Below are positions 15,665 to 39,101 of a stretch of 64,000 nt of DNA, piece after piece. Positions within the stretch are counted from its first letter, which is position 1; each line of letters begins with the position of its first letter. Below the pieces are notes generated by a model. The model searched no databases. It worked only from the letters and a program-made list of their open reading frames with translations, and was not told the DNA's origin. The DNA lies in NCBI RefSeq assembly GCF_055900595.2, contig NZ_CM148325.1; one strand, 5' to 3'. A program made the translations under genes and the position numbers.

Positions 15665-15674
15665 GGCAATCAAA

Positions 15675-17207: not shown

Positions 17208-17210
17208 GCC

Positions 17211-18615
<1,405 letters not shown>

Positions 18616-18665
18616 TTATTTAAGCACTTGATAAATTTGGAAATATTAATTTTCGGAGAACCCGT

Positions 18666-20129
18666 ATGTCTTTAGCAAAAGATAATATATGGAAACTATT
18701 GGCCCCACTGGTGGTGATGGGCGTCATGTTTCTTATCCCTGTCCCCGACGGTATGCCACCGCAGGCATGGCATTACTTCGCTGTGTTTGTGGCAATGATT
18801 GTCGGCATGATCCTCGAGCCAATTCCGGCAACAGCGATCAGTTTTATTGCGGTTACTATTTGCGTTATTGGCAGTAATTACCTTCTCTTTGATGCCAAAG
18901 AATTAGCTGACCCAGCGTTTAATGCGCAAAAACAGGCGCTGAAATGGGGTCTGGCTGGTTTTTCCAGCACCACGGTATGGCTGGTATTTGGTGCATTTAT
19001 TTTTGCATTAGGGTATGAAGTTTCCGGGTTAGGTCGTCGCATTGCCCTTTTCCTGGTGAAATTCATGGGCAAACGCACGCTGACGTTAGGTTATGCGATA
19101 GTCATTATCGACATTCTGCTGGCACCGTTTACACCTTCCAACACCGCGCGTACCGGGGGTACGGTTTTTCCGGTCATTAAAAACCTGCCGCCGCTGTTTA
19201 AATCATTCCCGAACGATCCGTCCGCGCGTCGTATTGGCGGCTATTTGATGTGGATGATGGTCATTAGTACCAGTCTGAGTTCGTCCATGTTTGTCACCGG
19301 TGCGGCACCAAACGTGCTGGGTCTGGAGTTCGTCAGCAAAATTGCCGGCATCCAGATTAGCTGGTTGCAGTGGTTCCTCTGCTTCCTGCCGGTTGGCGTT
19401 ATCTTACTTATCATTGCGCCGTGGCTTTCCTACGTGCTTTACAAACCGGAAATCACACACAGTGAAGAAGTAGCAACCTGGGCGGGTGATGAACTAAAAA
19501 CCATGGGTGCGCTGACACGCAGAGAGTGGACGCTGATTGGCCTTGTATTGCTCAGCTTAGGTTTGTGGGTATTTGGCAGTGAAGTCATTAATGCTACTGC
19601 GGTAGGTCTGCTGGCAGTTTCGCTAATGCTGGCCCTGCACGTTGTGCCGTGGAAAGACATTACCCGCTATAACAGCGCATGGAACACGCTGGTCAACCTG
19701 GCAACTTTGGTTGTGATGGCTAATGGCCTGACTCGTTCTGGCTTTATTGACTGGTTCGCCGGTACCATGAGTACGCACCTGGAAGGATTCTCACCAAACG
19801 CAACGGTGATTGTACTGGTTCTGGTGTTCTACTTTGCGCACTACCTGTTTGCCAGCCTGTCTGCGCACACCGCAACCATGCTGCCGGTTATTCTGGCCGT
19901 CGGTAAAGGTATTCCGGGCGTACCAATGGAACAACTGTGTATCCTGCTGGTGCTGTCTATCGGTATCATGGGCTGTCTGACGCCGTATGCAACCGGTCCT
20001 GGGGTGATTATTTATGGCTGCGGCTATGTGAAATCAAAAGATTACTGGCGACTTGGTGCAATCTTCGGGGTGATTTACATCTCTATGTTGCTGTTGGTTG
20101 GCTGGCCGATTCTCGCCATGTGGAACTAA
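18666..20129 (+). CDS. citT: Citrate:succinate antiporter
   Basis: 487-aa polytopic membrane ORF matching CitT. Confidence 0.93.
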   Translation: MSLAKDNIWKLLAPLVVMGVMFLIPVPDGMPPQAWHYFAVFVAMIVGMILEPIPATAISFIAVTICVIGSNYLLFDAKELADPAFNAQKQALKWGLAGFSSTTVWLVFGAFIFALGYEVSGLGRRIALFLVKFMGKRTLTLGYAIVIIDILLAPFTPSNTARTGGTVFPVIKNLPPLFKSFPNDPSARRIGGYLMWMMVISTSLSSSMFVTGAAPNVLGLEFVSKIAGIQISWLQWFLCFLPVGVILLIIAPWLSYVLYKPEITHSEEVATWAGDELKTMGALTRREWTLIGLVLLSLGLWVFGSEVINATAVGLLAVSLMLALHVVPWKDITRYNSAWNTLVNLATLVVMANGLTRSGFIDWFAGTMSTHLEGFSPNATVIVLVLVFYFAHYLFASLSAHTATMLPVILAVGKGIPGVPMEQLCILLVLSIGIMGCLTPYATGPGVIIYGCGYVKSKDYWRLGAIFGVIYISMLLLVGWPILAMWN

Positions 20130-20159
20130 TACGTTCGCCAAACGCTGAATAAATCATCA

Positions 20160-20196
20160 CGCCCGCCAGGTAAGCCCACCTGGCGGGCTTTTTTAT
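20160..20196 (+). terminator. Rho-independent terminator downstream of citT
   Basis: gcccgccaggtaagcccacctggcgggc stem followed by TTTTTT. Confidence 0.8.
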
Positions 20197-20242
20197 GATT
20201 TAATAGATAGTATTCAGTGTATGTATGAGTTCCACACCCATT

Positions 20243-21049
20243 ATGAAAGCATTCTGGCGTAACGCCGCGTTGCTCGCGGTTTCTCTGCTTCCCTTCTCTT
20301 TTGCCAACGCCGTGGCGTTGCAGGCAAAACAGTATGGCGATTTTGATCGCTATGTCCTGGCCCTCTCCTGGCAAACCGGATTTTGCCAGAGTCAACACGA
20401 TCGAAATCGTAACGAACGAGATGAATGTCGCCTGCAAACCGAAACGACCAACAAAGCTGATTTTCTGACCGTACATGGTCTATGGCCAGGATTGCCTAAA
20501 TCGGTTGCTGCCCGTGGTGTTGATGAACGCCGCTGGATGCGCTTCGGTTGCGCTACTCGCCCAATCCCGAATCTACCAGAGGCGCGCGCCAGCCGGATGT
20601 GTTCATCGCCGGAAACTGGGTTATCACTGGAAACGGCAGCTAAACTAAATGAAGTCATGCCGGGAGCTGGCGGTCGTTCCTGCCTGGAACGTTACGAATA
20701 TGCCAAACACGGCGTCTGCTTTGGTTTTGATCCGGACGCTTACTTCAGCACGATGGTACGTCTGAATCAAGAAATTAAAGAGAGCGAAACCGGAAAATTT
20801 CTTGCGGATAACTACGGTAAAACAGTGAGCCGCCGTGATTTTGATGCCGCCTTTGCCAAAAGCTGGGGAAAAGAGAACGTGAAAGCCGTTAAGCTAACGT
20901 GCCAGGGTAACCCTGCGTATTTGACTGAAATTCAGATTTCAATCAAAGCTGACGCCATCAACGCTCCGCTTTCTGCAAACTCATTCTTGCCACAACCACA
21001 CCCAGGCAACTGTGGCAAAACCTTTGTGATTGATAAAGCAGGTTATTAA
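20243..21049 (+). CDS. rna: Periplasmic ribonuclease I (RNase T2 family)
   Basis: ORF trimmed to MKAFWRNAALLAVSLLPFSFA (signal peptide), 268 aa; T2-family HGLWP motif present. Confidence 0.93.
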   Translation: MKAFWRNAALLAVSLLPFSFANAVALQAKQYGDFDRYVLALSWQTGFCQSQHDRNRNERDECRLQTETTNKADFLTVHGLWPGLPKSVAARGVDERRWMRFGCATRPIPNLPEARASRMCSSPETGLSLETAAKLNEVMPGAGGRSCLERYEYAKHGVCFGFDPDAYFSTMVRLNQEIKESETGKFLADNYGKTVSRRDFDAAFAKSWGKENVKAVKLTCQGNPAYLTEIQISIKADAINAPLSANSFLPQPHPGNCGKTFVIDKAGY

Positions 21050-21196
21050 TCCTCTGATTTACAAAAGACGCTAATTCGTCTTCCATAAACTATGACGATT
21101 AAGATTTATACATAATGCGCTGCATTGAGGAATTCCCTGAATGTGACGCAAATCACTTCAAAGAGTGAGCAACAGTCAGTATCATCATGTGAGTTA

Positions 21197-21230
21197 AACC
21201 CTCGCCGCCTGACGGTGAGGGTTTTCTTTT
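21197..21230 (+). terminator. Putative rho-independent terminator between rna and rnk
   Basis: aaccctcgccgcctgacggtgagggtt hairpin followed by a T-rich run. Confidence 0.55.
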
Positions 21231-21278
21231 GGGTATGTTTATCTGCGACACTCGCAGTACCGACGACATGGAGTAAAA

Positions 21279-21689
21279 ATGTCCAGACCAACTATCATCA
21301 TTAACGACCTGGATGCCGAACGCATCGATATTCTGCTGGAGCAACCCGCCTATGCTGGTTTGCCAATCGCCGACGCGTTAAACGCAGAGTTGGATCGCGC
21401 CCAAATGTGTTCGCCAGAAGAGATGCCACACGACGTGGTGACAATGAACAGCCGGGTTAAATTCCGCAATCTTAGCGATGGCGAAGTGCGTGTGCGCACG
21501 CTGGTGTATCCGGCAAAAATGACCGATAGCAATACTCAGCTTTCCGTTATGGCTCCGGTAGGTGCCGCACTGCTGGGGCTGCGCGTTGGCGATTCCATTC
21601 ACTGGGAACTTCCGGGCGGCGTTGCAACCCACCTTGAAGTGCTGGAACTCGAATACCAGCCAGAAGCTGCTGGCGACTACCTGCTTTAA
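21279..21689 (+). CDS. rnk: Regulator of nucleoside diphosphate kinase (GreA/GreB-like)
   Basis: 136-aa [25 protein letters not shown]... matches Rnk. Confidence 0.93.
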
Positions 21690-22044
21690 TCCCATCTGCA
21701 CAAGCGACAACTCGCTTTGCCCAGAGGATGCACTCGCATCCTCTTTCCGCTCAAATATCAACCAGATTTATCATTTTGCTCTTAAGCACAGCATTCTAAT
21801 CTGAACTGGTTATTCATCTGCGGAACCCCATATGAGCGAAGCTCTCAGTATCACTGCGTTTTATATATTCATAGCAGCTATTATTGTTGCTGCAGTGCTA
21901 TACCTTGAACAACGCTGGTAGTACCTGGTTTTATTTATTTTCCAGATCAATCGCAAATTCAGATCGAATCAGCCTCGCAAATCATAGATTCATAATCAAT
22001 AATGTGCTGTTATGTATACATGCAAAAACAAGGAGAGAATGCTT

Positions 22045-24160: not shown

Positions 24161-24330
24161 GTTTATCTCCTGGGCTTTAAACATCATCATGCAAGCGGCC
24201 TCTGCGGCTACCTGGATGCAGCTTGCATCATGGTGCGGGGAAGAAAATCGGGTGCCGCAGCACCCGAAGAATTAGGTGAATTTCCGAAGTATTTCGCGCC
24301 GGAGTTGGTAGCGCGAAAGACGAAGGAAAT

Positions 24331-24894
24331 TTAGATTTTACCAACCAGGTCCAGAGACGGAGCCAGAGTTGCTTCACCTTCTTTCCATTTAGCCGGGCAA
24401 ACTTCACCTGGGTGAGAAGCTACGTACTGTGCTGCTTTGATTTTACGCAGCAGGTCAGACGCGTCACGGCCAATGCCTTCAGCGGTAACTTCGATTGCCT
24501 GGATGATACCCTGCGGGTCAACAACGAAGGTCGCACGGTCAGCCAGACCTTCATCTTCACGCATGTTGTCGAAGTTACGGGTCAGGGCGCCAGTCGGGTC
24601 GCCGATCATCGCATATTTGATTTTAGCGATAGTTTCAGAGCTGCTGTGCCATGCTTTGTGGGTGAAGTGAGTATCGGTAGATACTGCGTATACATCTACG
24701 CCCAGTTTCTGCAGTTCTTCGTAGTGGTCAGCAACGTCACCCAGTTCGGTCGGGCATACGAAAGTAAAGTCAGCCGGGTAGAAGAAGAAGACGCTCCAGC
24801 GGCCTTCGGTATCTTTTTCGGTGATTTCGATGAATTCGCCGTTTTTGAATGCCTGGTTTTTAAAAGGTTTAATTTTGGTGTTAATCAAGGACAT
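24331..24894 (-). CDS. ahpC: Alkyl hydroperoxide reductase subunit C (2-Cys peroxiredoxin)
   Basis: 187-aa [24 protein letters not shown]... with peroxidatic FTFVCPTE and resolving VCP motifs. Confidence 0.97.
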
Positions 24895-25266
24895 CTATAC
24901 TTCCTCCGTGTTTTCGATGAGATGTAAGGTAACCAATTTTTGCCGATTCGGCTAATGCGTTTCCATTATCAAATCGATAAGTTTTACCTTACAACCGTCG
25001 TAAGACAACTTTGTGAACTTTGCACCGCCAGTGGCGATAAAAAGTAAAATGGGCCCTCTTTCCAGGTGACCGTGTAATCTGAACTACCCTTTGGTATCTT
25101 CAGCGCCTGCCTGCAGGCTGTGGTGTTGCCCTTACAAATGCAACAACGACATGGATTACAACACCCTCATAAACAAAGGGCAATCACCTGATCTAAGCTC
25201 TTACCTATGACAGTGATAGGTTATGCCTTTTACTCCATTTTTGCACTGACTGAAAAGGACAAATTA
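24895..25266. promoter_or_regulatory. Divergent ahpC / dsbG promoter region (expected OxyR-controlled)
   Basis: 372-bp spacer between divergent starts; OxyR control of ahpCF and dsbG is established knowledge. Exact operator not resolved from sequence. Confidence 0.5.
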
Positions 25267-26013
25267 ATGTTAAAAAAGATACTTTTACTGGCTCTGCTTC
25301 CTACAATCGCCTTTGCAGAGGAACTTCCTGCTCCGGTAAAAGCGATTGAAAAACAGGGCATTAAGATCATCAAAACGTTCGATGCCCCCGGCGGAATGAA
25401 AGGTTATCTCGGCAAGTATCAGGATATGGGCGTCACCATCTACCTGACTCCAGATGGTAAGCACGCTATCTCTGGTTACATGTACAACGAGAAAGGTGAA
25501 AACCTGAGTAACATGCTTATCGAAAAAGAAATTTATGCGCCAGCCGGACGCGAAATGTGGCAACGGATGGAACAATCGCACTGGCTCCTCGACGGTAAAA
25601 AAGACGCGCCAGTCATAGTCTACGTTTTCGCCGATCCGTTCTGCCCATATTGTAAACAGTTCTGGCAGCAGGCGCGCCCGTGGGTTGATTCTGGCAAAGT
25701 ACAGTTGAGAACATTGTTGGTTGGGGTTATCAAACCAGAAAGTCCGGCGACAGCCGCGGCAATTCTGGCCTCTAAAGATCCCGCAAAAACCTGGCAAGAA
25801 TATGAAGCCTCTGGCGGCAAACTTAAGCTAAATGTGCCTACAAACGTAAGTGCAGAGCAAATGAAAGTGTTAAGCGACAACGAGAAACTCATGGACGATC
25901 TGGGGGCAAATGTCACACCGGCTATCTATTACATGAGTAAGGAAAATACGCTGCAACAGGCCGTGGGGTTGCCCGATCAGAAAACGCTTAATATCATCAT
26001 GAGAAATAAATAG
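25267..26013 (+). CDS. dsbG: Periplasmic thiol:disulfide interchange protein DsbG
   Basis: ORF trimmed to [17 protein letters not shown]... (248 aa); thioredoxin CPYC active site. Confidence 0.93.
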
Positions 26014-26220
26014 AAGGTAATTCATGGGTGGTTGAAATACATTCTTGCTTTTCAACCATTCTAAAAACGCATGAATTGCTTCTTCCCCTCCTGACAACTG
26101 TGTTACTTTAGAAAAACTTAATCCAGAGTTAAGTAATAAAACATAACAAATATAAATAAAACAGTAGAATCATTGATTACAAGAATGATTTATGGAAAAG
26201 ATAATATAACGGAGTATGTT

Positions 26221-27123
26221 ATGGCTAATCTTTATGATTTAAAAAAATTCGACCTCAATTTACTGGTCATATTTGAGTGCATTTATCAACACCTCAGCAT
26301 TAGCAAAGCAGCAGAATCATTATATATAACGCCATCTGCCGTTAGTCAGTCGTTACAACGTTTACGCGCGCAATTTAATGACCCGTTATTCATCCGCTCA
26401 GGGAAAGGTATCGCGCCGACTACAACAGGGTTAAATCTGCATCACCATCTTGAGAAAAATCTCCGAGGCCTTGAACAAACGATCAATATCGTTAATAAGT
26501 CTGAGCTGAAGAAAAATTTTATTATCTACGGTCCTCAGCTTATTTCTTGTAGTAATAACAACATGCTAATCCGCTGTCTAAGACAAGATACTTCAATCGA
26601 TATAGAATGCCATGACATACTGCTTTCAGCTGAAAACGCTGAAGAATTGTTAGTTCAACGCAAAGCTGACCTGGCAATTACACTGCAACCAGTAATTAGC
26701 CGCTCTGTCATCTGCATGCCGGTACATACTATTCGCAATTCTCTTATATGTAGCAACAAACATCCTCGTATTACCGATACCAGTAACTATGAACAAATTA
26801 TCGCCGAAGAATTCACCTTGTTGATATCTAAATCAGCAGGGATTGACGAAATTCAAATGGACATAGATGAACGTTTTATGAACCGTAAAGTTTCATTTCG
26901 CAGTTCTTCTTTGTTGACGATAATTAATAGTATTTCTGTTACTGACTTATTGGGCATTGTGCCCACCGAACTGTACGATTTACATCGTGATTTTTTGAAG
27001 TTACAAGAGATAAAACTGGAACGACCACTTCCTACGGTTAAACTTTATATTTCCTATAACAAGGCTTCGTTGAACAACCTTGTCTTCTCACGATTCATAG
27101 ATCGTTTAAATGATAGCTTCTGA
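26221..27123 (+). CDS. ybdO: LysR-family transcriptional regulator YbdO
   Basis: Start taken at MANLYDLKKFDLNLL... (300 aa, GGAG RBS); N-terminal HTH; strongly AT-rich coding sequence. Confidence 0.85.
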   Translation: MANLYDLKKFDLNLLVIFECIYQHLSISKAAESLYITPSAVSQSLQRLRAQFNDPLFIRSGKGIAPTTTGLNLHHHLEKNLRGLEQTINIVNKSELKKNFIIYGPQLISCSNNNMLIRCLRQDTSIDIECHDILLSAENAEELLVQRKADLAITLQPVISRSVICMPVHTIRNSLICSNKHPRITDTSNYEQIIAEEFTLLISKSAGIDEIQMDIDERFMNRKVSFRSSSLLTIINSISVTDLLGIVPTELYDLHRDFLKLQEIKLERPLPTVKLYISYNKASLNNLVFSRFIDRLNDSF

Positions 27124-27269
27124 TTTATTACCACGGATAAATGTTATATTACGCATCAATTGATTCATTGTGTGAATATAAAATAATGTGCTCTATCTTG
27201 CTTCGTTTACCCTATAATTAGCGGATTCATCTCACAAGTCACCCAGTAACGTTCAGAGAGCGTTTTCAG

Positions 27270-28490
27270 ATGTCTATTTATAAAATCCCTCTTCCGCTGA
27301 ATATTTTAGAAGCTGCACAGGAACGTATTACCTGGACACTTAACACATTGCCCCGTGTTTGCGTTTCTTTTTCGAGGGGTAAAGATTCCGGATTAATGCT
27401 GCATCTTACCGCCGAACTTGCCAGAAAATTGGGAAAAAAAATCTGCGTTTTGTTTATCGACTGGGAAGCACAGTTCTCTTGTACCATCGACTATGTACAG
27501 TCGTTACGCGAGTTGTATACCGACGTTATTGAAGAGTTTTACTGGGTAGCACTCCCACTCAAGACGCAAAATTCCCTTTCACAATACCAACCAGAATGGC
27601 AGTGCTGGGAATCTGATGTCGAATGGGTGCGTCAGCCCCCGCAAGAAGCGATAACCGATCCTGACTTTTTCTCCTTTTACCAGCCAGGCATGACCTTCGA
27701 ACAATTTGTACGTGAGTTTGCCGAATGGTTTTCACAAAAACGTCCGGCGGCGATGATGATCGGCATCCGTGCGGATGAGTCCTACAACCGTTTTGTCGCC
27801 ATCGCCAGTTTAAGTAAACAACGTTTTGCCGATGATAAGCCCTGGACCACAGCCGCACCAGGCGGTCACAGCTGGTACATTTACCCCATCTACGACTGGA
27901 AAGTAGCTGATATCTGGACCTGGTATGCTAATCATAAATCCCTATGTAACCCATTGTATAATATCATGTATCAGGCAGGCGTTCCCCTGCGTCATATGCG
28001 AATTTGCGAACCTTTTGGCCCGGAGCAACGGCAAGGATTATGGCTCTATCACGTTATCGAACCGGATCGCTGGGCTGCTATGTGCGCACGAGTTAGCGGG
28101 GTAAAAAGTGGCGGCATTTACGCCGGACATGACAATCATTTTTATGGTCATCGGAAAATCCTCAAACCAGAGCATTTAGACTGGCAAGAGTATGCATTAT
28201 TGCTGCTTGATAGCATGCCGGAGAAAACGGCTGAGCATTACCGCAACAAAATTGCCATTTACTTGCATTGGTATCAGAAAAAAGGTGTCGAGGTGCCACA
28301 GACCCAGCACGGGGACATTGGCGCGAAAGATATCCCCTCCTGGCGGCGAATTTGCAAGGTGTTACTGAATAACGATTACTGGTGTCGGGCATTATCATTT
28401 AGCCCAACCAAAGCGAAGAATTATCAGCGTTATAACGAACGGATAAAAGTAAAACGTCAGGAGTGGGGAATACTATGCAACAACAATTAA
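27270..28490 (+). CDS. ybdN: PAPS-reductase-like / PP-loop ATP-pyrophosphatase superfamily protein YbdN (function unknown)
   Basis: 406-aa ORF; N-terminal PP-loop-like motif VSFSRGKDSG; recognised as YbdN. Confidence 0.88.
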   Translation: MSIYKIPLPLNILEAAQERITWTLNTLPRVCVSFSRGKDSGLMLHLTAELARKLGKKICVLFIDWEAQFSCTIDYVQSLRELYTDVIEEFYWVALPLKTQNSLSQYQPEWQCWESDVEWVRQPPQEAITDPDFFSFYQPGMTFEQFVREFAEWFSQKRPAAMMIGIRADESYNRFVAIASLSKQRFADDKPWTTAAPGGHSWYIYPIYDWKVADIWTWYANHKSLCNPLYNIMYQAGVPLRHMRICEPFGPEQRQGLWLYHVIEPDRWAAMCARVSGVKSGGIYAGHDNHFYGHRKILKPEHLDWQEYALLLLDSMPEKTAEHYRNKIAIYLHWYQKKGVEVPQTQHGDIGAKDIPSWRRICKVLLNNDYWCRALSFSPTKAKNYQRYNERIKVKRQEWGILCNNN

Positions 28491-29092
28491 CGCAGGATTT
28501 AACCCAATTTCTCGCCAGCTTGCCGGAAGACGATCGCATCAAAGCGATTAACGAAATCCGCCTGGCGATCCATCAGGTTAGCCCCTTTCGTGAAGAGCCA
28601 GTAGATTGTGTTCTGTGGGTTAAAAACAGCCAACTTATGCCAAATGATTACAACCCAAACAATGTGGCACCGCCCGAGAAAAAACTGTTACAAAAATCCA
28701 TTGAGATAGATGGTTTTACCCAACCTATTGTGGTCACGCACACAGATAAAAATGCTCTGGAAATCGTGGATGGCTTTCACCGTCATGAAATTGGTAAAGG
28801 CTCTAACACGTTAAAAATGCGATTAAAAGGATATTTACCGGTCACCTGTCTGGAAGGAACACGTAACGAACGCATCGCCGCGACTATTCGTCATAACCGC
28901 GCTCGTGGACGCCACCAAATTACAGCCATGTCAGAAATCGTTCGTGAACTCAGCCAGTTAGGATGGGACGACAATAAAATCGGCAAAGAGCTGGGTATGG
29001 ACAGCGACGAAGTGTTGCGCCTGAAACAAATTAACGGCCTGCAAGAGTTATTTGCTGACCGTCAATATTCCCGCGCCTGGACAGTAAAATAA
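28463..29092 (+). CDS. ybdM: ParB/sulfiredoxin-fold (ParB-like nuclease domain) protein YbdM (function unknown)
   Basis: 209-aa ORF from GTG 28463, overlapping ybdN by 28 nt (alternative ATG at 28475); DGFHRH motif resembling the GxHR signature of ParB/Srx/DndB-like proteins. Confidence 0.82.
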   Translation: MGNTMQQQLTQDLTQFLASLPEDDRIKAINEIRLAIHQVSPFREEPVDCVLWVKNSQLMPNDYNPNNVAPPEKKLLQKSIEIDGFTQPIVVTHTDKNALEIVDGFHRHEIGKGSNTLKMRLKGYLPVTCLEGTRNERIAATIRHNRARGRHQITAMSEIVRELSQLGWDDNKIGKELGMDSDEVLRLKQINGLQELFADRQYSRAWTVK

Positions 29093-30253
29093 TTACAGCT
29101 GGCGCAGGCGTTCAGCTGCCGCCAGCAACGTCGATTCCTTCTTGGCAAAACAGAGACGAATGAGCTTATGGGGGAAGGGATCGGCGCAAAATACCGACAG
29201 CGGGATCGCCGCCACGCCATGCTCCCGCGTCAGCCACTGGCAAAACTCAACGTCATCCAGCGAAGAAACCGCGCTGTAATCCACCAGCAAAAAGTAAGTG
29301 CCTTCGCACGGTAAAATCTCCAGCCGACTCTCACTTAAGGCGTTCACCAGAATATCGCGCTTCTGGCGATAAAAGTCCGGTAACGCAAGGTAGTGTTCAG
29401 GTTCTGCTCGCAGCATATCGGCAAGGGCCAGCTGCGCCGGGGTATTCACCGAAAAAGTCAGATACTGATGCACTTTGCGGATCTCGGCGCTGATGGGCGC
29501 AGGCGCAACGCAATAGCCCACTTTCCAGCCGGTCATATGATAGGTCTTGCCAAACGATGACACCGCCACCGCCCGCTCACGCAGTTGCGGATGCGCCAGC
29601 ACACTGGCATGGCCCTGCTGTGAAAAGTTGATATGCTCGTAAACTTCATCGCTAATGACAAAAATCTCGTGCCCGGCAATTGCCTGCCACAAAGCGGAAA
29701 AATCAGTCTGCTGCCAGACAGTAGCACTGGGGTTATGCGGGGTGTTAAGGATCACCAGTCGGGTGCGCTCGCTTAACAATGCGGCAAATTCCTGCCAGTC
29801 CACGCGAAAATGCGGTGGTTGCAGTGCAATACGTTTCACTATTCCACCCGCAAGCGTGATGGCGGGGGCGTAACTGTCATAGCTGGGATCAAAGCAAATC
29901 ACTTCATCGCCATTGCGCACCAATGCAGTAATCGCTGCGTACAGCGCTTCCGTCGCCCCTGCTGTTACGGTGATATCGCTGTCGGCATCTGGTTGATAGC
30001 CATACAGCCGTTCCGTTTTCTGAACAATCGCCTCGCGCAAGGCCTGCACGCCGGTCATGGGTGCGTATTGGTTTGCTCCGTGGGCAACGTGGTACGCCAG
30101 CCGTTCCTGCAAATAGCGCGGACCATCAAAATCAGGAAAGCCTTGCGACAGGTTAATCGCCTGGTGTTGCTGCGCCAGTGCGCTCATCTGGGTGAAAATA
30201 GTGGTGCCAAGTTGTGGAAGTTTGCTTTGTGGAATCAGAGGGTTATTTGTCAT
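29093..30253 (-). CDS. ybdL: Methionine aminotransferase (PLP-dependent)
   Basis: ORF trimmed to MTNNPLIPQSKLPQLG... (386 aa); PLP-lysine context SFGKTY. Confidence 0.92.
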   Translation of the reverse strand: MTNNPLIPQSKLPQLGTTIFTQMSALAQQHQAINLSQGFPDFDGPRYLQERLAYHVAHGANQYAPMTGVQALREAIVQKTERLYGYQPDADSDITVTAGATEALYAAITALVRNGDEVICFDPSYDSYAPAITLAGGIVKRIALQPPHFRVDWQEFAALLSERTRLVILNTPHNPSATVWQQTDFSALWQAIAGHEIFVISDEVYEHINFSQQGHASVLAHPQLRERAVAVSSFGKTYHMTGWKVGYCVAPAPISAEIRKVHQYLTFSVNTPAQLALADMLRAEPEHYLALPDFYRQKRDILVNALSESRLEILPCEGTYFLLVDYSAVSSLDDVEFCQWLTREHGVAAIPLSVFCADPFPHKLIRLCFAKKESTLLAAAERLRQL

Positions 30254-30361
30254 TTTTATTGTGCCTGACAAAGTTGCGTGTTGAAGCCACTATAACACGA
30301 TGCTAGTATTTGGCAATCAAGACGTTTAGATGTCTAAATAAAACAATAAGGACAACACAAC

Positions 30362-31450
30362 ATGCCTCACAATCCTATCCGCGTCGTCGTTGGCCCTGCT
30401 AACTACTTTTCTCATCCCGGCAGTCTCAATCACCTGCATGATTTTTTCACTGATGAACAACTTTCTCGCGCAGTGTGGATCTACGGTGAACGTGCACTTG
30501 CCGCGGCGCAAACCAAACTTCCATCGGCGTTTGAACTGCCAGGAGCAAAGCATATTTTGTTTCGCGGTCATTGCAGTGAAAGCAATGTGCAACAACTGGC
30601 GGCTGAGTCCGGTGACGATCGCAGCGTGGTGATTGGCGTCGGCGGCGGCGCACTGCTCGACACCGCGAAAGCCCTCGCCCGCCGTCTCGGTCTGCCGTTT
30701 GTTGCCGTTCCAACGATTGCCGCTACCTGCGCTGCCTGGACACCACTCTCTGTCTGGTACAACGATGCCGGACAGGCGCTACATTATGAGATTTTTGACG
30801 ACGCCAATTTTATGGTGCTGGTGGAACCGGAGATAATCCTCAATGCGCCGCAAGAATATCTGCTGGCAGGAATCGGTGACACGCTGGCGAAATGGTATGA
30901 AGCGGTGGTGCTGGCTCCTCAGCCAGAAACGCTGCCGCTAACCGTGCGGCTGGGAATCAATAATGCGCAGGTCATTCGCGACGCCTTGTTAAACAGTAGC
31001 GAACAGGCGCTTGCCGATCAGCAAAATCAGCAGTTAACGCAATCATTTTGCGATGTGGTCGATGCGATTATCGCCGGAGGCGGAATGGTCGGTGGTCTGG
31101 GCGATCGTTTTACGCGTGTGGCGGCGGCCCATGCCGTGCATAACGGTCTGACCGTTTTGCCGCAAACCGAGAAGTTTCTCCACGGCACCAAAGTCGCCTA
31201 CGGAATTCTGGTGCAAAGCGCCTTGCTGGGTCAGGATGATGTGCTGGCGCAATTAACCGGGGCGCATCAGCGTTTTCATCTGCCGACCACGCTGGCGGAG
31301 CTGGAAGTGGATATCAATAATCAGGCAGAGATCGACAAAGTGATTGCGCACACCTTGCGTCCGGCGGAATCCATTCATTACCTGCCGGTCACGCTGACAC
31401 CAGATACGTTGCGTGCAGCGTTCGAAAAAGTGGAATCGTTTAAAGTCTGA
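30362..31450 (+). CDS. ybdH: Hydroxycarboxylate dehydrogenase (iron-containing alcohol dehydrogenase family)
   Basis: 362-aa ORF MPHNPIRVVVGPANYFSHPGSL... matches YbdH; GGGxxxD NAD motif. Confidence 0.9.
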   Translation: MPHNPIRVVVGPANYFSHPGSLNHLHDFFTDEQLSRAVWIYGERALAAAQTKLPSAFELPGAKHILFRGHCSESNVQQLAAESGDDRSVVIGVGGGALLDTAKALARRLGLPFVAVPTIAATCAAWTPLSVWYNDAGQALHYEIFDDANFMVLVEPEIILNAPQEYLLAGIGDTLAKWYEAVVLAPQPETLPLTVRLGINNAQVIRDALLNSSEQALADQQNQQLTQSFCDVVDAIIAGGGMVGGLGDRFTRVAAAHAVHNGLTVLPQTEKFLHGTKVAYGILVQSALLGQDDVLAQLTGAHQRFHLPTTLAELEVDINNQAEIDKVIAHTLRPAESIHYLPVTLTPDTLRAAFEKVESFKV

Positions 31451-31459
31451 CGTACAGAT

Positions 31460-31657
31460 TTAGCAGCAGCGCGCGCCACCTTTTCCACCGTAGCGCGCGT
31501 CCTGCCGCTCACGGAAAAACTCCTCGTAGGTCATCGGCGTTTGATCGGGATGGTTAACCCGCATATGTTCGACATAGTTGTCGTAATCGGGCATACCAAT
31601 CATCAGCTTCGCTGCCTGACCTAAATATTTTCCGGCTTTTGCCAGTGAATCAAACAT
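31460..31657 (-). CDS. ybdD: Small DUF466-family protein YbdD, encoded with cstA
   Basis: 65-aa [33 protein letters not shown]...; GGAGG 5 nt upstream of the ATG. Confidence 0.85.
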
Positions 31658-31721
31658 CAATACCTCCGGTAATCAGATTGCTGAGAGAGTGCATTAATAG
31701 CTATCAACGCGCTCGGTCAGT

Positions 31722-31793
31722 CCCCTCGCCCCACCGGGGAGAGGGTTAGGGTGAGGGGGAACCCTAGGCACTACGCCAACATCCCCCTCACTC
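31722..31793. repeat. GC-rich imperfect-palindromic intergenic element between cstA and ybdD
   Basis: cccctcgccccaccggggagagggttagggtgaggggg...ccccctcactc: repeated CCCCTC/GAGGGG units able to form alternative hairpins. Confidence 0.55.
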
Positions 31794-31798
31794 TGACT

Positions 31799-33904
31799 TT
31801 AGTGCGCGCCTTTCGCCTGCGCCACGATCTCCTCGACATTTTCCGGCATTGGCTCATACGGCGTTTCTTTCGCCGTTGGCTTCGGCTCTTTCAATGCCGC
31901 CAGTGCCGTCTTAATCGAGAACAGCGCCAGAACCACCACGACCACCATAAAGAAGATGGTTAACCCGGCATCCAGACGGTTGTTGAACACCAGTTGCGCC
32001 AGTTGTGACTCAGTATACTGCGACGGAATATTGCCGCTGTCGATCATTGCCTGGAACTTGTTAGCAATCGCCAGGAAACCGACTTTCGCATCCGGGCTAA
32101 ACGCTTTCTGCCAGCCTGCGGTCAGGGTACAAATCAGCAGCCAGGCCGTTGGTACCAGCGCCACCCAGGCGTAACGTTGACGTTTCATTTTGAACAACAC
32201 CACGGCACAGAGCATCAGCGCCATCCCTGCCAGCATCTGGTTGGCAATACCAAACAGCGGCCACAGAGTGTTAATACCGCCCAGCGGATCGACCACGCCC
32301 TGATGCAGGAAGTAGCCCCACGCCAGCACGCACAGCGCCGTTGCCAGCAGGTTAGCAGGCAGTGAATCGGTCCGTTTCAGACCCGGAGAAACCACGCCCA
32401 GCAGATCCTGCAACATAAAGCGCGCAGCACGCGTACCTGCATCCACCGCCGTCAGAATAAACAGTGCTTCAAACAGAATGGCGAAGTGATACCAGAACGC
32501 CACATCCATCATGCCGCCCAGCGCACCGTGCAGAATGTAGGCCATCCCCACCGCCAGCGTCGGCGCACCGCCCGCACGGGAAATGATCGACTGTTCACCC
32601 ACTTCGCTGGCAATCTGATTTAACGTATCTGGCGTAATGCTAAAGCCCCAGCTACTCACTACCTGCGCAGCAGATGCCACTACATCCGCCGTCCCCGCCG
32701 GAGCCAGCACCGCCATCGGGCTGTTCATCGCGAAGTACACGCCCGGATCGATGATACAGGCAGAAACCAGTGCCATAATCGCCACGAAGGATTCCATCAA
32801 CATCCCGCCGTAGCCGATAAAGCACGCCTGACCTTCGTTCGCCAGCATCTTCGGTGTGGTGCCGGAAGAGATCAGCGCATGGAAGCCAGACACCGCGCCA
32901 CAGGCGATAGTAATAAACAGGAACGGGAACAGATTACCGGTCCATACCGGGCCAGTGCCATCTACAAACTTGGTCAGCGCAGGCATGGTCAGCGTCGGAC
33001 GCATAATCAAAATGCCTACCGCCAGACCGACGATAGTCCCGATTTTCAGGAAGGTAGAGAGGTAGTCACGCGGAGCCAGCAGCAACCACACCGGCAGAAC
33101 CGCCGCCACAAAACCGTAACCCACCAGCATCCAGGTCAGCTGCACGCCGGTAAAGTCAAAGTACGGTGCCCAGGTCGGGCTTTCTGCCACCCAGCCGCCA
33201 GAGATAATGGCGAAAATAAGGAATACCAGGCCAATCACCGACACTTCCCCAATGCGGCCTGGACGCAGATAGCGCAGGTAAATCCCCATGAACAGCGCCA
33301 GCGGAATGGTGAACGCAACGGTATACGTTCCCCACGGGCTATGAGTCAGGGCTTTCACCACGATCATCGCCAGTACTGCAAGAATAATGACCATGATCAT
33401 AAAGCAGGCCACCAGCGCAATCACCCCGGCGGTTGGCCCCATCTCTTCTTTAACCAGCTCGCCCAGCGAGCGACCGTCACGGCGCGTGGAAACAAACAGC
33501 ACCATAAAATCCTGCACCGCACCGGCGAGAACCACCCCGGCAAGTAGCCAGATCATCCCCGGTAGGTAGCCCATTTGCGCCGCCAGTACCGGCCCCACCA
33601 ACGGGCCTGCTCCGGCAATGGCCGCAAAATGGTGACCGAACAGCACTTTCTTGTCCGTCGGCACATAGTCCAGCCCGTCGTTATGGCGCACCGCTGGCGT
33701 CATACGCGTCGGGTCAACCGCCAATACATTTTTGGCAATATAAAGACCATAAAAACGGTAAGCGATCAGATAGATACAGACCGACGCTACCACAATCCAC
33801 AGCGCGTTGATCTGTTCCCCACGATTTAAAGCAATGTATCCCAGAGCAAATGCTCCCATTACAGAGAGCACTGTCCAGACGAGGTATTTCCCTGATTTGT
33901 TCAT
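31799..33904 (-). CDS. cstA: Carbon starvation protein A (pyruvate/peptide transporter family)
   Basis: 701-aa polytopic membrane ORF matching CstA. Confidence 0.94.
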   Translation of the reverse strand: MNKSGKYLVWTVLSVMGAFALGYIALNRGEQINALWIVVASVCIYLIAYRFYGLYIAKNVLAVDPTRMTPAVRHNDGLDYVPTDKKVLFGHHFAAIAGAGPLVGPVLAAQMGYLPGMIWLLAGVVLAGAVQDFMVLFVSTRRDGRSLGELVKEEMGPTAGVIALVACFMIMVIILAVLAMIVVKALTHSPWGTYTVAFTIPLALFMGIYLRYLRPGRIGEVSVIGLVFLIFAIISGGWVAESPTWAPYFDFTGVQLTWMLVGYGFVAAVLPVWLLLAPRDYLSTFLKIGTIVGLAVGILIMRPTLTMPALTKFVDGTGPVWTGNLFPFLFITIACGAVSGFHALISSGTTPKMLANEGQACFIGYGGMLMESFVAIMALVSACIIDPGVYFAMNSPMAVLAPAGTADVVASAAQVVSSWGFSITPDTLNQIASEVGEQSIISRAGGAPTLAVGMAYILHGALGGMMDVAFWYHFAILFEALFILTAVDAGTRAARFMLQDLLGVVSPGLKRTDSLPANLLATALCVLAWGYFLHQGVVDPLGGINTLWPLFGIANQMLAGMALMLCAVVLFKMKRQRYAWVALVPTAWLLICTLTAGWQKAFSPDAKVGFLAIANKFQAMIDSGNIPSQYTESQLAQLVFNNRLDAGLTIFFMVVVVVLALFSIKTALAALKEPKPTAKETPYEPMPENVEEIVAQAKGAH

Positions 33905-34084
33905 AGTTGTTATCCGTGTGCGTGTCCATAGAGATGTTACATTTTGTTTCTATAACATCTTTGTGCAATTTAACAACACGGCAACTATGTAAATCGGAGT
34001 TGAAACCAATATTTAACTTAACAATGTTAACTTGATCACTTCGTTAACTGAGTTTTCCTGCAATCTCATTTAATTCTGTCGGGT
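33905..34084 (-). promoter_or_regulatory. cstA promoter/leader region
   Basis: 180-bp spacer upstream of cstA containing an 8-bp inverted repeat agatgtta-N13-taacatct (33931..33960); CRP and CsrA control of cstA is established knowledge, sites not resolved. Confidence 0.4.
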
Positions 34085-35246
<1,162 letters not shown>

Positions 35247-35247
<1 letters not shown>

Positions 35248-36104
35248 CATTTCACCTCGCGGGAGAGTAGCTTCCACCAGGCATCGATGGTCGGATTTTT
35301 CGCCAGCATGACAAAATCGATATCGCCATGCACTTTGCGCCAGCGCGCCGCCAGCGCCATCATGCGCACCGAATCCAGACCGTAATCAATTAGGTTGTCG
35401 TCATCGAACGGCTCATCGGACTCGTCCAGCAACGGCAAGATCACCTCACGCAGCGCCGATTTGCTGGCGGGGATAGGTACTGGCAGCAATTCTTCGGTCA
35501 TCACCACCCGGCCAGAACGTCCGGCCACATATTTCAGCGACATCAAATGCTCGTCACGGCTGAAATCGGCCAGCGCATCTGCCACCATAAACGGTTTAAT
35601 ATCGCGCATAAATGCGTCGGTTGCGGTGGTCATACAGCCAATGTGGGCGTACACCCCGGTTATAATCAGTTGGTTACGTCCACTCTCTTTGAGCATTTGT
35701 TCCAGCGGAGAACGATGAAACGCGCTGTAGCGCCACTTCACCAACACCGTGTCGTCGGCATCTGGCGTCAGGCGATCCACCACCTTTTGCTGTTCCGGTG
35801 AACGGGTCAGGCCCGGCCCCCACATATCATTCAACAGCGCCCGATCTTCATCGCTCTGCTCTTTCGGCTGGGCGGTGTAATAAACCGGGATATTGTGCTG
35901 TTTGCAGTAGTCGCGTAGTGCCGCAATATTCGCGATCACCTGCTCCATCATCGGGCAGTTCTCGCCCCAGAAGCTAACAAAATAGTCCTGCATATCATGG
36001 ATTAACAACGCGGCACGTTGCGGCTCAAAGGCCCAGTTGACTTTATTGTGCGGAATATCGTGAGACTCCGGCAGTGCGTAAGCCTGTAATTTTGGAATAG
36101 CCAT
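35247..36104 (-). CDS. entB: Isochorismatase / aryl carrier protein
   Basis: 285-aa ORF MAIPKLQAYALPESHDIP...; C-terminal ArCP with LGLDSV phosphopantetheine site. Confidence 0.95.
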
Positions 36105-36117
36105 CGTGTTCTCTCCT

Positions 36118-37728
36118 TCAGGCTGATGCGCGTGACGCCAGCCACTGACGTAATTGTTTTTTATCGACTTTCCCGACCGCCGTCAGCGGAAGTGAATCTA
36201 CACACTCCACGCGATCCGGTAATTTAAATTCGGCAATACCCTGTTCACGCAGGAAACGACGCACCTGTACCGCACGCAGTGGTTCTTTTACCACCAGATA
36301 AGCACAGCTTTTTTCGCCCATCAGCTCATCTTCCATGCTCACCAGTGCGGCGTAGATCACTGCCGGATGGCGCAGTAACAGGTTTTCGATCTCTTCGGCA
36401 GCGATCTTCTCGCCGCCACGGTTGATCTGATCTTTCTCGCGCCCCTGCACGGTGATGTACCCCTCTGGATCAATAGAGATCAGATCGCCGGAACAGTAAA
36501 AACCGTTGGCATCAAAGGCGCTGGCATTGTGCTGTGGACTTTTGTAATAGCCGCGGAAGGTGTACGGCCCGCGCGTCATCAGGCGTCCAACCTCCCCTTG
36601 CGGCAGTGGATTTCCGTCAGCATCGGCAACCCACACTTCATCATCCGGACACATTGGATAGCCCTGGGTATGGATAATTTTTTCCGCGCTATCATCAAGA
36701 CGGGTGTAGTTCACCAGCCCTTCCGCCATGCCGAATACCTGCTGTAACTGGCAGCCAATCTCTGCGGGAATACGCGCCGCAAGCGTGGCAGAAAGACGTG
36801 CGCCACCGACCTGTAACAGTTTCAGCGAGGCAAGCTGCGCCCGGCTTTCGCCTTCAGCCAGTGCCTGCAACCACAGGCTGACTGCTGGCGGCACCAGCGC
36901 GGTGACGTTCACCTGATGTTTTTCAATCAATGGGAAACAAAGCGTGGCGCTGGGGTCGGCAGCCAGAACGACAGTGCCGCCAGCGAGAAATACCCCCAAC
37001 GATCCCGGCGAACTCATGGCGTAGTTATGAGCCGCCGGGATCGCGCACAGGTAGCGCGTTTGTTGCGTGAACTGACAAATCTCGACGCTACGACGCACGC
37101 TGTAGTAGTAGTCGTTATGAGTGCGCGGGATCAGTTTCGGTGTGCCGGTGGTGCCGCCGGAAAGCTGGAAATAGGCCACTTCATCGGCAGGTGACGGTGT
37201 GGCAGTAAAATCCTCTGCCGGATGGTTAATCGCATCCTGCAAGTTATGCTCACCGCTGTCGTTCAGCAGCTGCACCACGCGAATGGAGGAGTGCTCTGCA
37301 ACAAATGTATTGAGGAAATCATCCCCGCTAAACAGCGCATGTTGGCGATCGGCAATCAGTAACACCGGTTTAATCTGGCTGGCGTATGCGTTCATTTCAC
37401 TACGCTGATGACTGAACAGCGCCAGTACCGGTGCAACGCCCAGTTTTAACAGCGCAAAAAAGGTAATATACAATTCAGCGACGTTACCCAGTTGTACCAG
37501 TGCGGTTTCACCGGGTTTAATGCCCTGACGACGCAAGCTACAGGCGAGATTATCCGCCGCCTGATTCAGTTCCCGGTAACTCAACTGACGCTCGCCGTCG
37601 ATGACCGCGATGCTGTCGCTTGCGGCATGACGGGTCAGAATGTCGGTCAGCGGCAAATCCTGCCAGTAGCCTTTTTCCCGATAGCGACGGGCAAACTCTT
37701 CCGGCCAGCGGGTGAATGGAATGCTCAT
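36118..37728 (-). CDS. entE: 2,3-dihydroxybenzoate-AMP ligase
   Basis: 536-aa adenylation enzyme (SGGTTGTPK motif). Confidence 0.95.
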
Positions 37729-37737
37729 CCTCGCTCC

Positions 37738-38913
<1,176 letters not shown>

Positions 38914-38927
38914 ATCATCCTCCACAA

Positions 38928-38962
38928 AATGATAAAGGCTTTAATAATGATTATCATTTATA
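38928..38962. promoter_or_regulatory. Fur box in the divergent entC / fepB promoter region
   Basis: aaTAATGATtATCATTtaT closely matches the Fur consensus GATAATGATAATCATTATC. Confidence 0.8.
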
Positions 38963-39101
38963 TTTTCGGTCGCTAACCTAAAAGCAAACGAGCACTATGT
39001 CAACTCTTGAGGTAATGCAATCTGCAAGTCGGGGTTGCATCTGCTTGTGGTTACAATGAAAATGAGAAGCATTAACTTCATTAATAACAGGAAGCTGATT
39101 T

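Follow-up and report, generated by a model that had tools for sequence, protein, structure and literature searches.

What does a PP-loop enzyme do with a ParB-like partner whose gene begins inside its own? The question is raised by ybdN and ybdM, two overlapping genes at positions 27,270 to 29,092 of a 64,000-nucleotide stretch of DNA (hereafter the window) from contig NZ_CM148325.1 of NCBI RefSeq assembly GCF_055900595.2. A reading of the window by a model that saw only its letters and open reading frames (the original prediction) had likened the pair to DndC/DndB and to IbrA/IbrB, had suggested a nucleic-acid modification, sensing or defence activity, and had proposed the two genes as the best candidate in the window for an undescribed system. 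Our analysis indicates that ybdNM is the chromosomal, CitR-repressed member of the IbrA/IbrB family and an obligate two-protein module, one that most likely acts on DNA. To call it an undescribed system overstates the case, because the operon has been recorded before, as have its repressor CitR and the related IbrAB; the mechanism alone is undescribed. New here are the obligate pairing, the alternative SNF2 or GNAT-like third gene, the finding that no cysteine of YbdN is invariant and an accessory paralogue pair of 57% identity that 40% of E. coli genomes carry.

The two genes form an obligate pair

An exhaustive search with YbdN recovered 1,592 clusters at 50% identity with E values up to 1e-3, and 206 clusters with E values up to 1e-30. 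Our analysis covered 80 loci taken from species-representative genomes as well as loci of phages and plasmids, and in all 82 that left room to check, the YbdN-like gene was accompanied by a YbdM-like gene. The partner lay directly downstream in 77 of the 82, usually overlapping the YbdN-like gene or beginning within 20 nt of it. Paired loci span the Proteobacteria, Bacteroidota, Firmicutes, Verrucomicrobia, Actinobacteria and a Heimdallarchaeote, and the pairing is far beyond chance.

The sole solo copy that we saw (L091, 6739-7899) is a YbdN-like gene of 386 aa with a weak DUF3440 match; no ParB-like partner was called on its contig, and it adjoins an invasin-type gene and GerE/helix-turn-helix (HTH) regulator genes. 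Fusions of ParB and phosphoadenosine phosphosulfate (PAPS) reductase-type domains amounted to one odd 281-aa hybrid and one apparently frameshifted N-GNAT fusion, and were judged unconvincing. A prophage context for the chromosomal homologues was likewise rejected, as the sampled loci lie in ordinary stretches of chromosome (in Listeria, for instance, tig and proB flank the pair).

Third genes and neighbours were counted in 62 non-enterobacterial loci. In 16 of these, and in Flavobacterium phages, a small SNF2-family helicase (Pfam SNF2-rel_dom and Helicase_C) is encoded immediately before the YbdN-like gene, abutting its upstream end or overlapping it (L031, L033, L038, L039, L041, L043, L046, L052, L055, L056, L060, L064, L071, L081, L083 and L084; phage locus L006, 4158-5369). 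A GNAT-like protein of about 140 aa is encoded upstream of or between the two genes in 17 of the 62, and also in Ralstonia; one example returned Pfam acetyltransferase matches, and the loci with such a gene comprise L040 (9197-9661), L092 (2438-2872), L097 (13203-13640) and 16 Bacteroidales loci (for example L065, 7592-8002). The two kinds of third gene are mutually exclusive, and 29 of the 62 loci have neither. No other neighbour family recurred in these loci except housekeeping genes: we found no recurrent nuclease, desulfurase, DndD/E-like or known defence gene, and the other large neighbours of family loci encode PurL, AddAB and FlgK.

The SNF2 partner is compact (approximately 415 aa); the N-terminal Walker-A region of the representative looks degenerate, Pfam covers only the middle of the SNF2 domain, and the protein weakly matches the ZorD, DpdE, DrmD and BrxH models. 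In the representative P0302, a frameshifted stretch is apparently followed by a fusion of the GNAT-like part with the YbdN-like protein.

YbdN combines a PP-loop fold with a family-specific helical domain

The assignment of YbdN to the PP-loop/PAPS-reductase superfamily is borne out by both profile and fold. Pfam matches PAPS_reduct to residues 30-234 (3e-13) and DUF3440 to residues 237-383 (3e-23), and conservation and an AlphaFold model were examined with 55 diverse homologues, in all of which DUF3440 was found. The model is confident (predicted local distance difference test 91, predicted template modelling score 0.89); its Rossmann-like alpha/beta fold can be superposed on solved members of the superfamily, and its DUF3440 portion is all-helical. 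The nearest structural relatives of YbdN are adenylyltransferases, namely flavin mononucleotide (FMN) adenylyltransferase (FAD synthase) and CysD (ATP sulfurylase), and a profile search of PDB sequences ranked the relatives as the structure comparison did. Single-sequence searches of the PDB gave marginal matches only, and the profile searches were more informative.

Within the family, the PP-loop consensus is SGGKDS, in which G37, K38 and S40 are invariant and S35, G36 and D39 are at least 90% conserved. Further conserved positions are D64/E66, W113/W119/R121, a GxRxDES motif (G165-S171), a YPIYDW motif (P206-W210), D214 and Y226/N227/Y230, together with R244, P248, W268, R274, G277, W305 and D369 in the DUF3440 region. 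Judged by its sequence, YbdN is a PP-loop enzyme that keeps the ATP-binding residues of its family intact and adds the helical DUF3440 domain.

CysH-type reductases of PAPS or adenosine phosphosulfate carry a C-terminal catalytic cysteine in an ECGLH motif. Among the 55 YbdN family members we found no invariant or near-invariant cysteine, C246 being only partly conserved; a CysH-type catalytic thiol and DndC-type cysteines are therefore ruled out. YbdN scores 35 bits against the NCBIfam CysH models, below their cut-offs of 154 (NF002537) and 254 (TIGR02057). The DndC model TIGR03183 gives 19.6 bits against a cut-off of 290.4, in a partial match over residues 145-223, and the PADLOC DndC model gives an E value of 2.7e-4. 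The product name 'PAPS reductase' is very probably wrong for YbdN.

The PP-loop motif VSFSRGKDSG that had been read from the window is indeed present (residues 32-41), but its arginine is specific to this allele: an AGG codon at position 36 replaces the second glycine of SGGKDS, the sequence of K-12. Position 36 is glycine in 210 sequences and alanine, cysteine or serine in five among 121 close relatives and 95 family representatives, and arginine occurs in the window allele only. As the exact window protein is present on 191 public contigs, R36 is a real lineage variant and not an error. CysD tolerates isoleucine at the equivalent position, and the R36 allele may be attenuated or altered in function.

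YbdM joins a sulfiredoxin-type ParB fold to a helix-turn-helix

YbdM could likewise be placed, as anticipated, in the ParB/sulfiredoxin (Srx) fold. Pfam ParB_N matches it weakly (3e-4), its top structural match is KorB, and it possesses the fold together with the GxxR (box II) motif. Three C-terminal helices match the DNA-binding domains of sigma region 4, LuxR, KorB and VirB, and in the model the protein ends after this HTH, with no C-terminal dimerisation domain.

Conservation was assessed in 27 diverse family members. The DGFHRH motif occupies residues 99-104 of the 205-aa form of the protein; its D99, G100 and R103 do not vary, and conservation of H102 reaches at least 90%. A second signature, TIRHNRARGxH, has R139, N141, R142, A143, G145 and H147 invariant, and the full conserved set comprises N57, N60-P61-N62, E68, S75, G80, P84, D99-G100-(F)-H102-R103 and T137-I-R139-H-N141-R142-A143-R-G145-x-H147. 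A GCHR or DGxHR motif is characteristic of sulfiredoxin, SerK and DndB. The GFHR of YbdM aligns with the GERR of Noc and ParB; in form, however, its letters resemble GCHR/DGxHR and not the CTP-clamp motif. The hallmarks of canonical CTP-dependent ParB clamps (GERRxR, ENxxRxxL, a dimerisation domain and a ParA/parS context) were not found in YbdM, and no ParA gene lies beside ybdNM. Nor did YbdM, whose motif reads DGFHR, match DndB/DGQHR models in NCBIfam (E up to 0.01) or the DndB models of PADLOC (E up to 0.1). It does match ParB-methyltransferase models in PHROG and PADLOC.

A vertically inherited core operon under CitR control

The distribution and neighbourhood of ybdNM across Enterobacteriaceae, an analysis that the original prediction had called for, identify it as a core, syntenic locus. 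The citR-ybdNM segment is matched in 5,420 of 5,426 complete E. coli genomes (at 80% coverage or more in 5,116), nearly always as one chromosomal copy in the same position, and orthologues 70-84% identical occur in Citrobacter, Salmonella, Enterobacter, Klebsiella and relatives. Relative to K-12, the quotient of the non-synonymous and synonymous substitution rates (dN/dS) is 0.046 for ybdN and 0.049 for ybdM, with dS of approximately 0.45; this strong purifying selection on both means that both genes are functional. We conclude that ybdNM is a vertically inherited, functional core-type operon and not a mobile island.

The coordinates and motifs first reported for the pair hold, as does the start of ybdM inside the end of ybdN. 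Initiation at the upstream GTG gives a YbdM of 209 aa and an overlap of 28 nt, and initiation at the downstream ATG gives 205 aa and an overlap of 16 nt, either of which fits the translational coupling that had been suggested. The junction is kept in both orthologues and paralogues. The true start is ambiguous because both positions are conserved: the -28 start, (A/G)TGGGG encoding MG[DN], in enterobacterial orthologues and in the 57%-identical paralogues, and the -16 ATG in orthologues, many of which are annotated at 205 aa in Citrobacter. The overlap of the genes stands with either start.

Chromatin immunoprecipitation with exonuclease digestion has placed a CitR peak upstream of citR-ybdNM, and deletion of citR raises ybdN by 5.5 log2 and ybdM by 2.5 log2 (PMC9068703). 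In that deletion 86 genes change although CitR binds the citR-ybdNM site only; they include citCDEF, the flagellar regulon and the cys regulon, of which cysDNC, cysJIH and cysH rise by 2-3 log2 where ybdNM is de-repressed (PMC9068703). The same study states that citR is regulated by H-NS and lists YbdM as a predicted transcription factor (PMC9068703).

The citR gene shows a deep allelic dimorphism within E. coli, which extends over both of its flanking intergenic regions (26014-27269). The window copy of citR has 79.5% nucleotide identity to K-12 and 96.7% to strain EFF60, and the K-12 and EFF60 genes differ by a dS of 2.16 at a dN/dS of 0.03. The citR-ybdN intergenic region follows suit, with 74% identity to K-12 and 97% to EFF60. 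With a 3.2-kb query, 1,851 genomes fall at 90-95% identity and 3,551 at 80-90%, bands that suggest two common haplotypes in E. coli.

Phages, plasmids and islands carry the pair

YbdN and YbdM match the phage families phrog_2302 (4e-75) and phrog_2159 (2e-69) over most of both lengths. Relatives of YbdN occur in 224 phage records, and both lytic and temperate phages carry the pair. In four phage groups the module sits beside or inside the packaging genes. Arthrobacter phages and mycobacteriophages have the order ParB, PAPS-reductase, ParB, (methyltransferase, terS), TerL, and Flavobacterium phages the order terS, TerL, two small genes, SNF2, IbrB, IbrA, one small gene, portal. In a Pseudoalteromonas phage the pair ends the early operon just before the portal gene, and in a Bacillus phage it lies at the genome end with a methyltransferase. 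DNA methyltransferase genes thus adjoin the pair in Arthrobacter and Bacillus phages. S. thermophilus phages carry it, annotated as IbrA/IbrB, in a moron position after the lysin gene. The idea that the YbdN-like protein replaces TerL where it precedes the portal gene was rejected, since both phages concerned encode TerL elsewhere.

The YbdN homologues of phages go by the name of 'PAPS reductase' auxiliary metabolic genes, and members of the DUF3440 clade have been counted as viral cysH. That they lack a conserved cysteine and are tied to a ParB partner speaks against a role of these genes in sulfur assimilation.

A paralogue pair of approximately 57% identity is found on 854 plasmid records, and its hosts include plasmids of Klebsiella, E. 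coli and Shigella. Klebsiella virulence plasmids have it between fecIA and iroBCDN, E. coli IncF plasmids have it near an autotransporter gene, and remnants of it persist on Shigella pINV. In E. coli it is present in 2,145 of the 5,426 genomes (40%), patchily and in up to four copies, under the RefSeq name IbrB-like; it lies on islands, where it adjoins PerC-family regulators, aerobactin genes, TonB receptors and tRNA-Asn. This accessory pair and the RefSeq name 'IbrB-like' uphold the likeness to IbrA/IbrB that had been proposed. E. coli TW08637 (L095, 9936-12138) has a frameshift in its accessory IbrA-type gene but keeps an intact IbrB-type gene, and a PerC-family regulator gene comes directly after, on an island with aerobactin genes.

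On a Ralstonia megaplasmid (L097, 8596-14256) the order is hemagglutinin adhesin, ibrA, GNAT-like gene, ibrB, and a preprint reports that IbrAB, the acetyltransferase and the adhesin RadA rise together in an rprR mutant in planta. Adhesin neighbours of IbrAB-type modules (L097; L009, 4905-10841; L091, 255-7899; L032; L045) include a hemagglutinin or trimeric autotransporter adhesin, an autotransporter, an invasin/intimin, type IX secretion surface proteins and a FimD-like tip adhesin. The recurrence recalls the control of Eib adhesins by IbrAB, but these are individual cases, and enrichment for adhesin adjacency could not be shown.

A DNA-directed module and its alternatives

IbrAB of E. coli ECOR-9 reportedly activates the otherwise silent eib genes of prophages, which encode immunoglobulin-binding adhesins. 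In annotation sources, IbrA and IbrB figure as co-activators that act on the expression of prophage genes; orthologues of YbdN are annotated 'IbrA family prophage gene co-activator' or 'immunoglobulin-binding regulator', and RefSeq names YbdM IbrB-like. In the literature on ybdN/ybdM, on DUF3440, on IbrA/IbrB and on PAPS reductases with ParB we found no biochemical function, in agreement with the original prediction. A 2022 paper reports YbdM protein 29-fold up in E. coli carrying plasmid pUUH239.2 (blaCTX-M-15) and a cost of 10% of growth rate upon YbdM overexpression, and calls YbdM 'completely uncharacterized'. Of ten Keio mutants with resistance to a lacritin peptide, one is a ybdM knockout.

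The reading that we tentatively favour, although we would stop short of calling it probable, is that ybdNM encodes a module for modification or remodelling, ATP-dependent and directed at DNA, which is read out as transcriptional activation. DNA is the proposed place of action because of the HTH and ParB fold of YbdM, the SNF2 partner, the methyltransferase neighbours, the ParB-methyltransferase matches and the packaging positions in phages. Adenylyl transfer from ATP is proposed because of the PP-loop and the kinship to FMN adenylyltransferase and CysD. The grounds for a transcriptional read-out are the annotation of IbrA/IbrB as prophage co-activators, the 86 genes that change in the citR deletion although CitR binds a single site, the IbrAB-type paralogues beside PerC, siderophore and adhesin genes, and the joint induction of IbrAB, the acetyltransferase and the adhesin in Ralstonia; DpdB with DpdA is described as a precedent. 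YbdM would bind DNA through its HTH, and its nucleotide pocket would serve as a switch or loader that positions YbdN. YbdN would adenylate something on or at the DNA, be it a base, a phosphate or the partner protein, at the expense of ATP, which it would convert to AMP and PPi, and the adenylation might either activate this target for substitution or mark it directly. In some lineages the SNF2 translocase or the GNAT-fold transferase could complete the reaction. The outcome would be an altered state of the DNA or nucleoid in which genes that are silent as a rule, and often horizontally acquired, are turned on, as is reported for IbrAB and the prophage eib genes. The phage versions may act on phage DNA around packaging, and in E. 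coli the module is kept off by CitR and, as PMC9068703 has it, by H-NS.

Several points weigh against this proposal. A nucleophile donor is not evident in the core pair, and the closest structural relatives of YbdN act on small molecules (FMN, sulfate) and not on DNA. The core pair must suffice by itself, because SNF2 and GNAT are both missing from E. coli and from roughly one in two non-enterobacterial loci. Upstream of ybdN we found no conserved operator, inverted repeat or parS-like site, in a region that is not conserved between genera. In the searchable literature, neither modification nor DNA binding, ATP turnover or complex formation has been demonstrated for any family member. The citR-deletion transcriptome is confounded, and strain-background effects are likely, because a ybeF deletion shares its lrhA/flagellar pattern (PMC9068703). 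Lastly, the window allele, with G36R in its PP-loop, might be attenuated.

The main rival is a regulatory nucleotide switch in which DNA is not covalently changed. YbdM would then be a VirB/KorB-like clamp or anti-silencer that opens H-NS-silenced DNA, and YbdN would make, remove or sense the gating ligand, for instance an adenylylated small molecule. That YbdN is nearest to the small-molecule adenylyltransferases FAD synthase and CysD speaks for such a switch, as do the annotation of IbrAB as a prophage-gene co-activator, the H-NS regulation of citR, the position of accessory paralogues beside PerC-type regulators and virulence genes, and the listing of YbdM among predicted transcription factors. 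YbdM, however, has the Srx-type GFHR in place of the GERRxR and ENxxR motifs for CTP and has no dimerisation domain at its C-terminus, a conserved binding site was not found upstream, and the SNF2, GNAT and methyltransferase neighbours and the phage packaging positions better fit a DNA-acting enzyme. On balance we regard the switch as unlikely.

RNA could be the substrate instead, with YbdN adenylating a tRNA or rRNA nucleobase in the manner of TilS, TtuA, ThiI and MnmA, and YbdM acting as a specificity or regulatory subunit. These precedents are set against a pair without an RNA-binding domain (THUMP or PUA) and without conserved cysteine or Fe-S residues for thiolation, whose obligate member is a ParB/HTH binder of the double-stranded-DNA type and whose third genes encode a DNA translocase or a GNAT protein. 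No tRNA genes were linked in the examined loci, and we consider RNA modification improbable.

A role in defence had also been envisaged for ybdNM; as an anti-phage or, conversely, an anti-restriction system, the pair would mark or sense DNA to tell self from invader, as in Dnd, Ssp, Dpd and type 4 BREX. The superfamily kinship with DndC, BrxP and DndB is consistent with it, as are the weak ZorD, DpdE, DrmD and BrxH matches of the SNF2 partner and a PANGU-related cluster in which a nucleoid protein is paired with ParBc proteins and a PAPS reductase. The IbrAB-type paralogues have a patchy distribution, lie on islands and occur in several copies, phage and plasmid copies of the pair could protect incoming DNA, and YbdM rises upon carriage of a resistance plasmid. 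The suggestion is nevertheless weak for ybdNM itself, because this is a core, vertically inherited operon with a dedicated repressor, and phages have the pair as well. Laboratory conditions leave the operon tightly repressed; the 62 neighbourhoods, in which the other recurrent neighbours are housekeeping genes, contain no linked nuclease or effector and no recurrent defence gene; and the best PADLOC v2 matches of ybdNM (E of 2.7e-4 to 2.3e-3) are all partial and at noise level. Defence therefore appears quite improbable. That YbdN is a true sulfur-assimilation enzyme, as the RefSeq and PHROG product names ('phosphoadenosine phosphosulfate reductase'), virome studies of 'cysH' auxiliary metabolic genes and the rise of the Cys regulon in the citR deletion might suggest, can hardly be right for a protein that falls far below the CysH cut-offs, has no ECGLH-type thiol, carries an ATP-type PP-loop (SGGKDS) as in CysD and DndC and not a PAPS-type one, and is always paired with a DNA-binding ParB-like protein; E. 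coli, besides, already has cysH.

The DNA-directed reading also has a bolder form, which we offer as speculation and hold to be unlikely as a whole. IbrAB/YbdNM would be a widespread and hitherto unrecognised ATP-dependent DNA-marking machine built from an adenylating PP-loop enzyme, an Srx-type ParB loader and an optional SNF2 or GNAT component, and a non-sulfur covalent DNA modification or adduct would act as an epigenetic switch; in bacteria it would de-silence acquired adhesin and virulence genes, and in phages and plasmids the mark would be set when DNA is packaged or enters. If this were true, thousands of viral DUF3440 'cysH' genes would be DNA-modification genes and not sulfur-metabolism genes. 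The two genes belong to the uncharacterised gene set of E. coli and to a family that extends from bacteria and archaea to phages and virulence plasmids, with approximately 1,600 protein clusters at 50% identity. Knowledge of their function would explain how IbrAB activates prophage adhesins, assign a core enterobacterial operon and correct a common phage annotation, and it can be sought directly in E. coli, where deletion of citR already de-represses ybdNM.

Features of the locus and its surroundings

In the window, ybdNM is flanked by citR and ybdL (Table 1). The TATAAT hexamer in the citR-ybdN intergenic region is identical in three aligned Escherichia alleles. Terminator and promoter scans around ybdNM were at background level, and Rfam matched no RNA element over 25900-29600.

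Table 1. Features of the citR-ybdNM locus, with positions in the window
Feature	Position	Strand	Evidence or remark
citR (ybdO), LysR-type repressor of ybdNM	26221-27123	+	NCBIfam CitR equivalog, 455 bits (cut-off 400); RefSeq annotation citR
citR-ybdN intergenic region with putative ybdNM promoter	27124-27269	+	Perfect TATAAT at 27213-27218; weak promoter-like site at 27160-27187 (consensus scan)
ybdN, 406 aa, IbrA-family PP-loop ATP-pyrophosphatase or adenylyltransferase-like	27270-28490	+	ATG 27270; TAA 28488-28490
ybdN PP-loop codons, S33-F-S-R36-G-K-D-S40	27366-27389	+	AGG at 27375-27377, allele-specific G36R
DUF3440 helical C-terminal domain of YbdN, residues 237-383	27978-28418	+	Pfam DUF3440
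ybdN/ybdM junction	28459-28490	+	AGGAG 28459-28463; GTG 28463; ATG 28475; ybdN stop 28488-28490
ybdM, 209 or 205 aa, IbrB-family ParB/Srx fold with C-terminal HTH	28463-29092	+	Stop TAA 29090-29092
YbdM DGFHR motif, equivalent of ParB box II and Srx GCHR	28769-28783	+	Family conservation; alignment to GERR of Noc/ParB
YbdM TIRHNRARGRH motif, family signature	28883-28915	+	Conservation in 27 diverse family members
YbdM C-terminal helix-turn-helix region (LGMDSDEVLRLKQ)	28919-29050	+	

The surroundings of the operon are unusually diverged for E. coli. Over 24311-39074 (dsbG-ybdL-hcxA-cstA-ent) the window has 93% nucleotide identity to K-12, with dS of 0.24-0.47; over 15506-21750 (cit-rna-rnk) it is 97.9% identical. 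The comparison suggests that the stretch from dsbG to ent is a recombinant or divergent-lineage segment. At 21751-22026, the K-12 gene ybdR (a zinc-dependent alcohol dehydrogenase gene between yldA and uspG) has no counterpart, approximately 1.6 kb of K-12 being replaced by approximately 0.28 kb; ybdR is also unannotated in strain EFF60.

Relationship to known systems

The comparison with DndC/DndB, which the original prediction had drawn, stands at the level of the superfamily and no further. These proteins, like SspD and BrxP, share with ybdNM the pairing of a PP-loop ATP-pyrophosphatase with a ParB/Srx DGxHR protein, the SGGKDS match and the link to DNA. YbdN, however, has DUF3440 in place of the C-terminus of DndC and lacks conserved cysteines for Fe-S or persulfide chemistry, a cysteine dyad having been noted for DndC (PMC12839542), and YbdM differs from DndB in its HTH and in being encoded downstream of the enzyme gene. 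Every test of Dnd membership that we ran failed, and the reported lack of DndA, DndD and DndE partners was confirmed, since none lies beside ybdNM and none recurs in the 62 other loci.

The Dpd system offers a parallel of another kind: a ParB-like ATPase, DpdB, works with the DNA base-modifying enzyme DpdA, whose base exchange it is described as driving (PMC12839542), SNF2-type helicases (DpdE and DpdJ) take part, and the PP-loop enzyme QueC supplies the base. CysD and FMN adenylyltransferase, the structural neighbours of YbdN, have 18-20% identity to it, act on small-molecule substrates and have neither DUF3440 nor a ParB partner.

KorB and VirB resemble YbdM in joining a ParB N-terminal domain to an HTH and in serving gene regulation and not partition, much as IbrAB is linked to the activation of horizontally acquired genes. 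In YbdM, GFHR and IRHNRARG replace GERRxR and ENxxR, the dimerisation domain is missing and an enzymatic partner is needed, which KorB and VirB do without. The closest system is IbrA/IbrB, whose architecture is that of ybdNM, a PAPS_reduct and DUF3440 gene followed by an overlapping ParB-like and HTH gene; IbrA/IbrB-type copies are accessory and borne on islands or plasmids, whereas ybdNM is the core chromosomal copy, with a LysR repressor, CitR, of its own.

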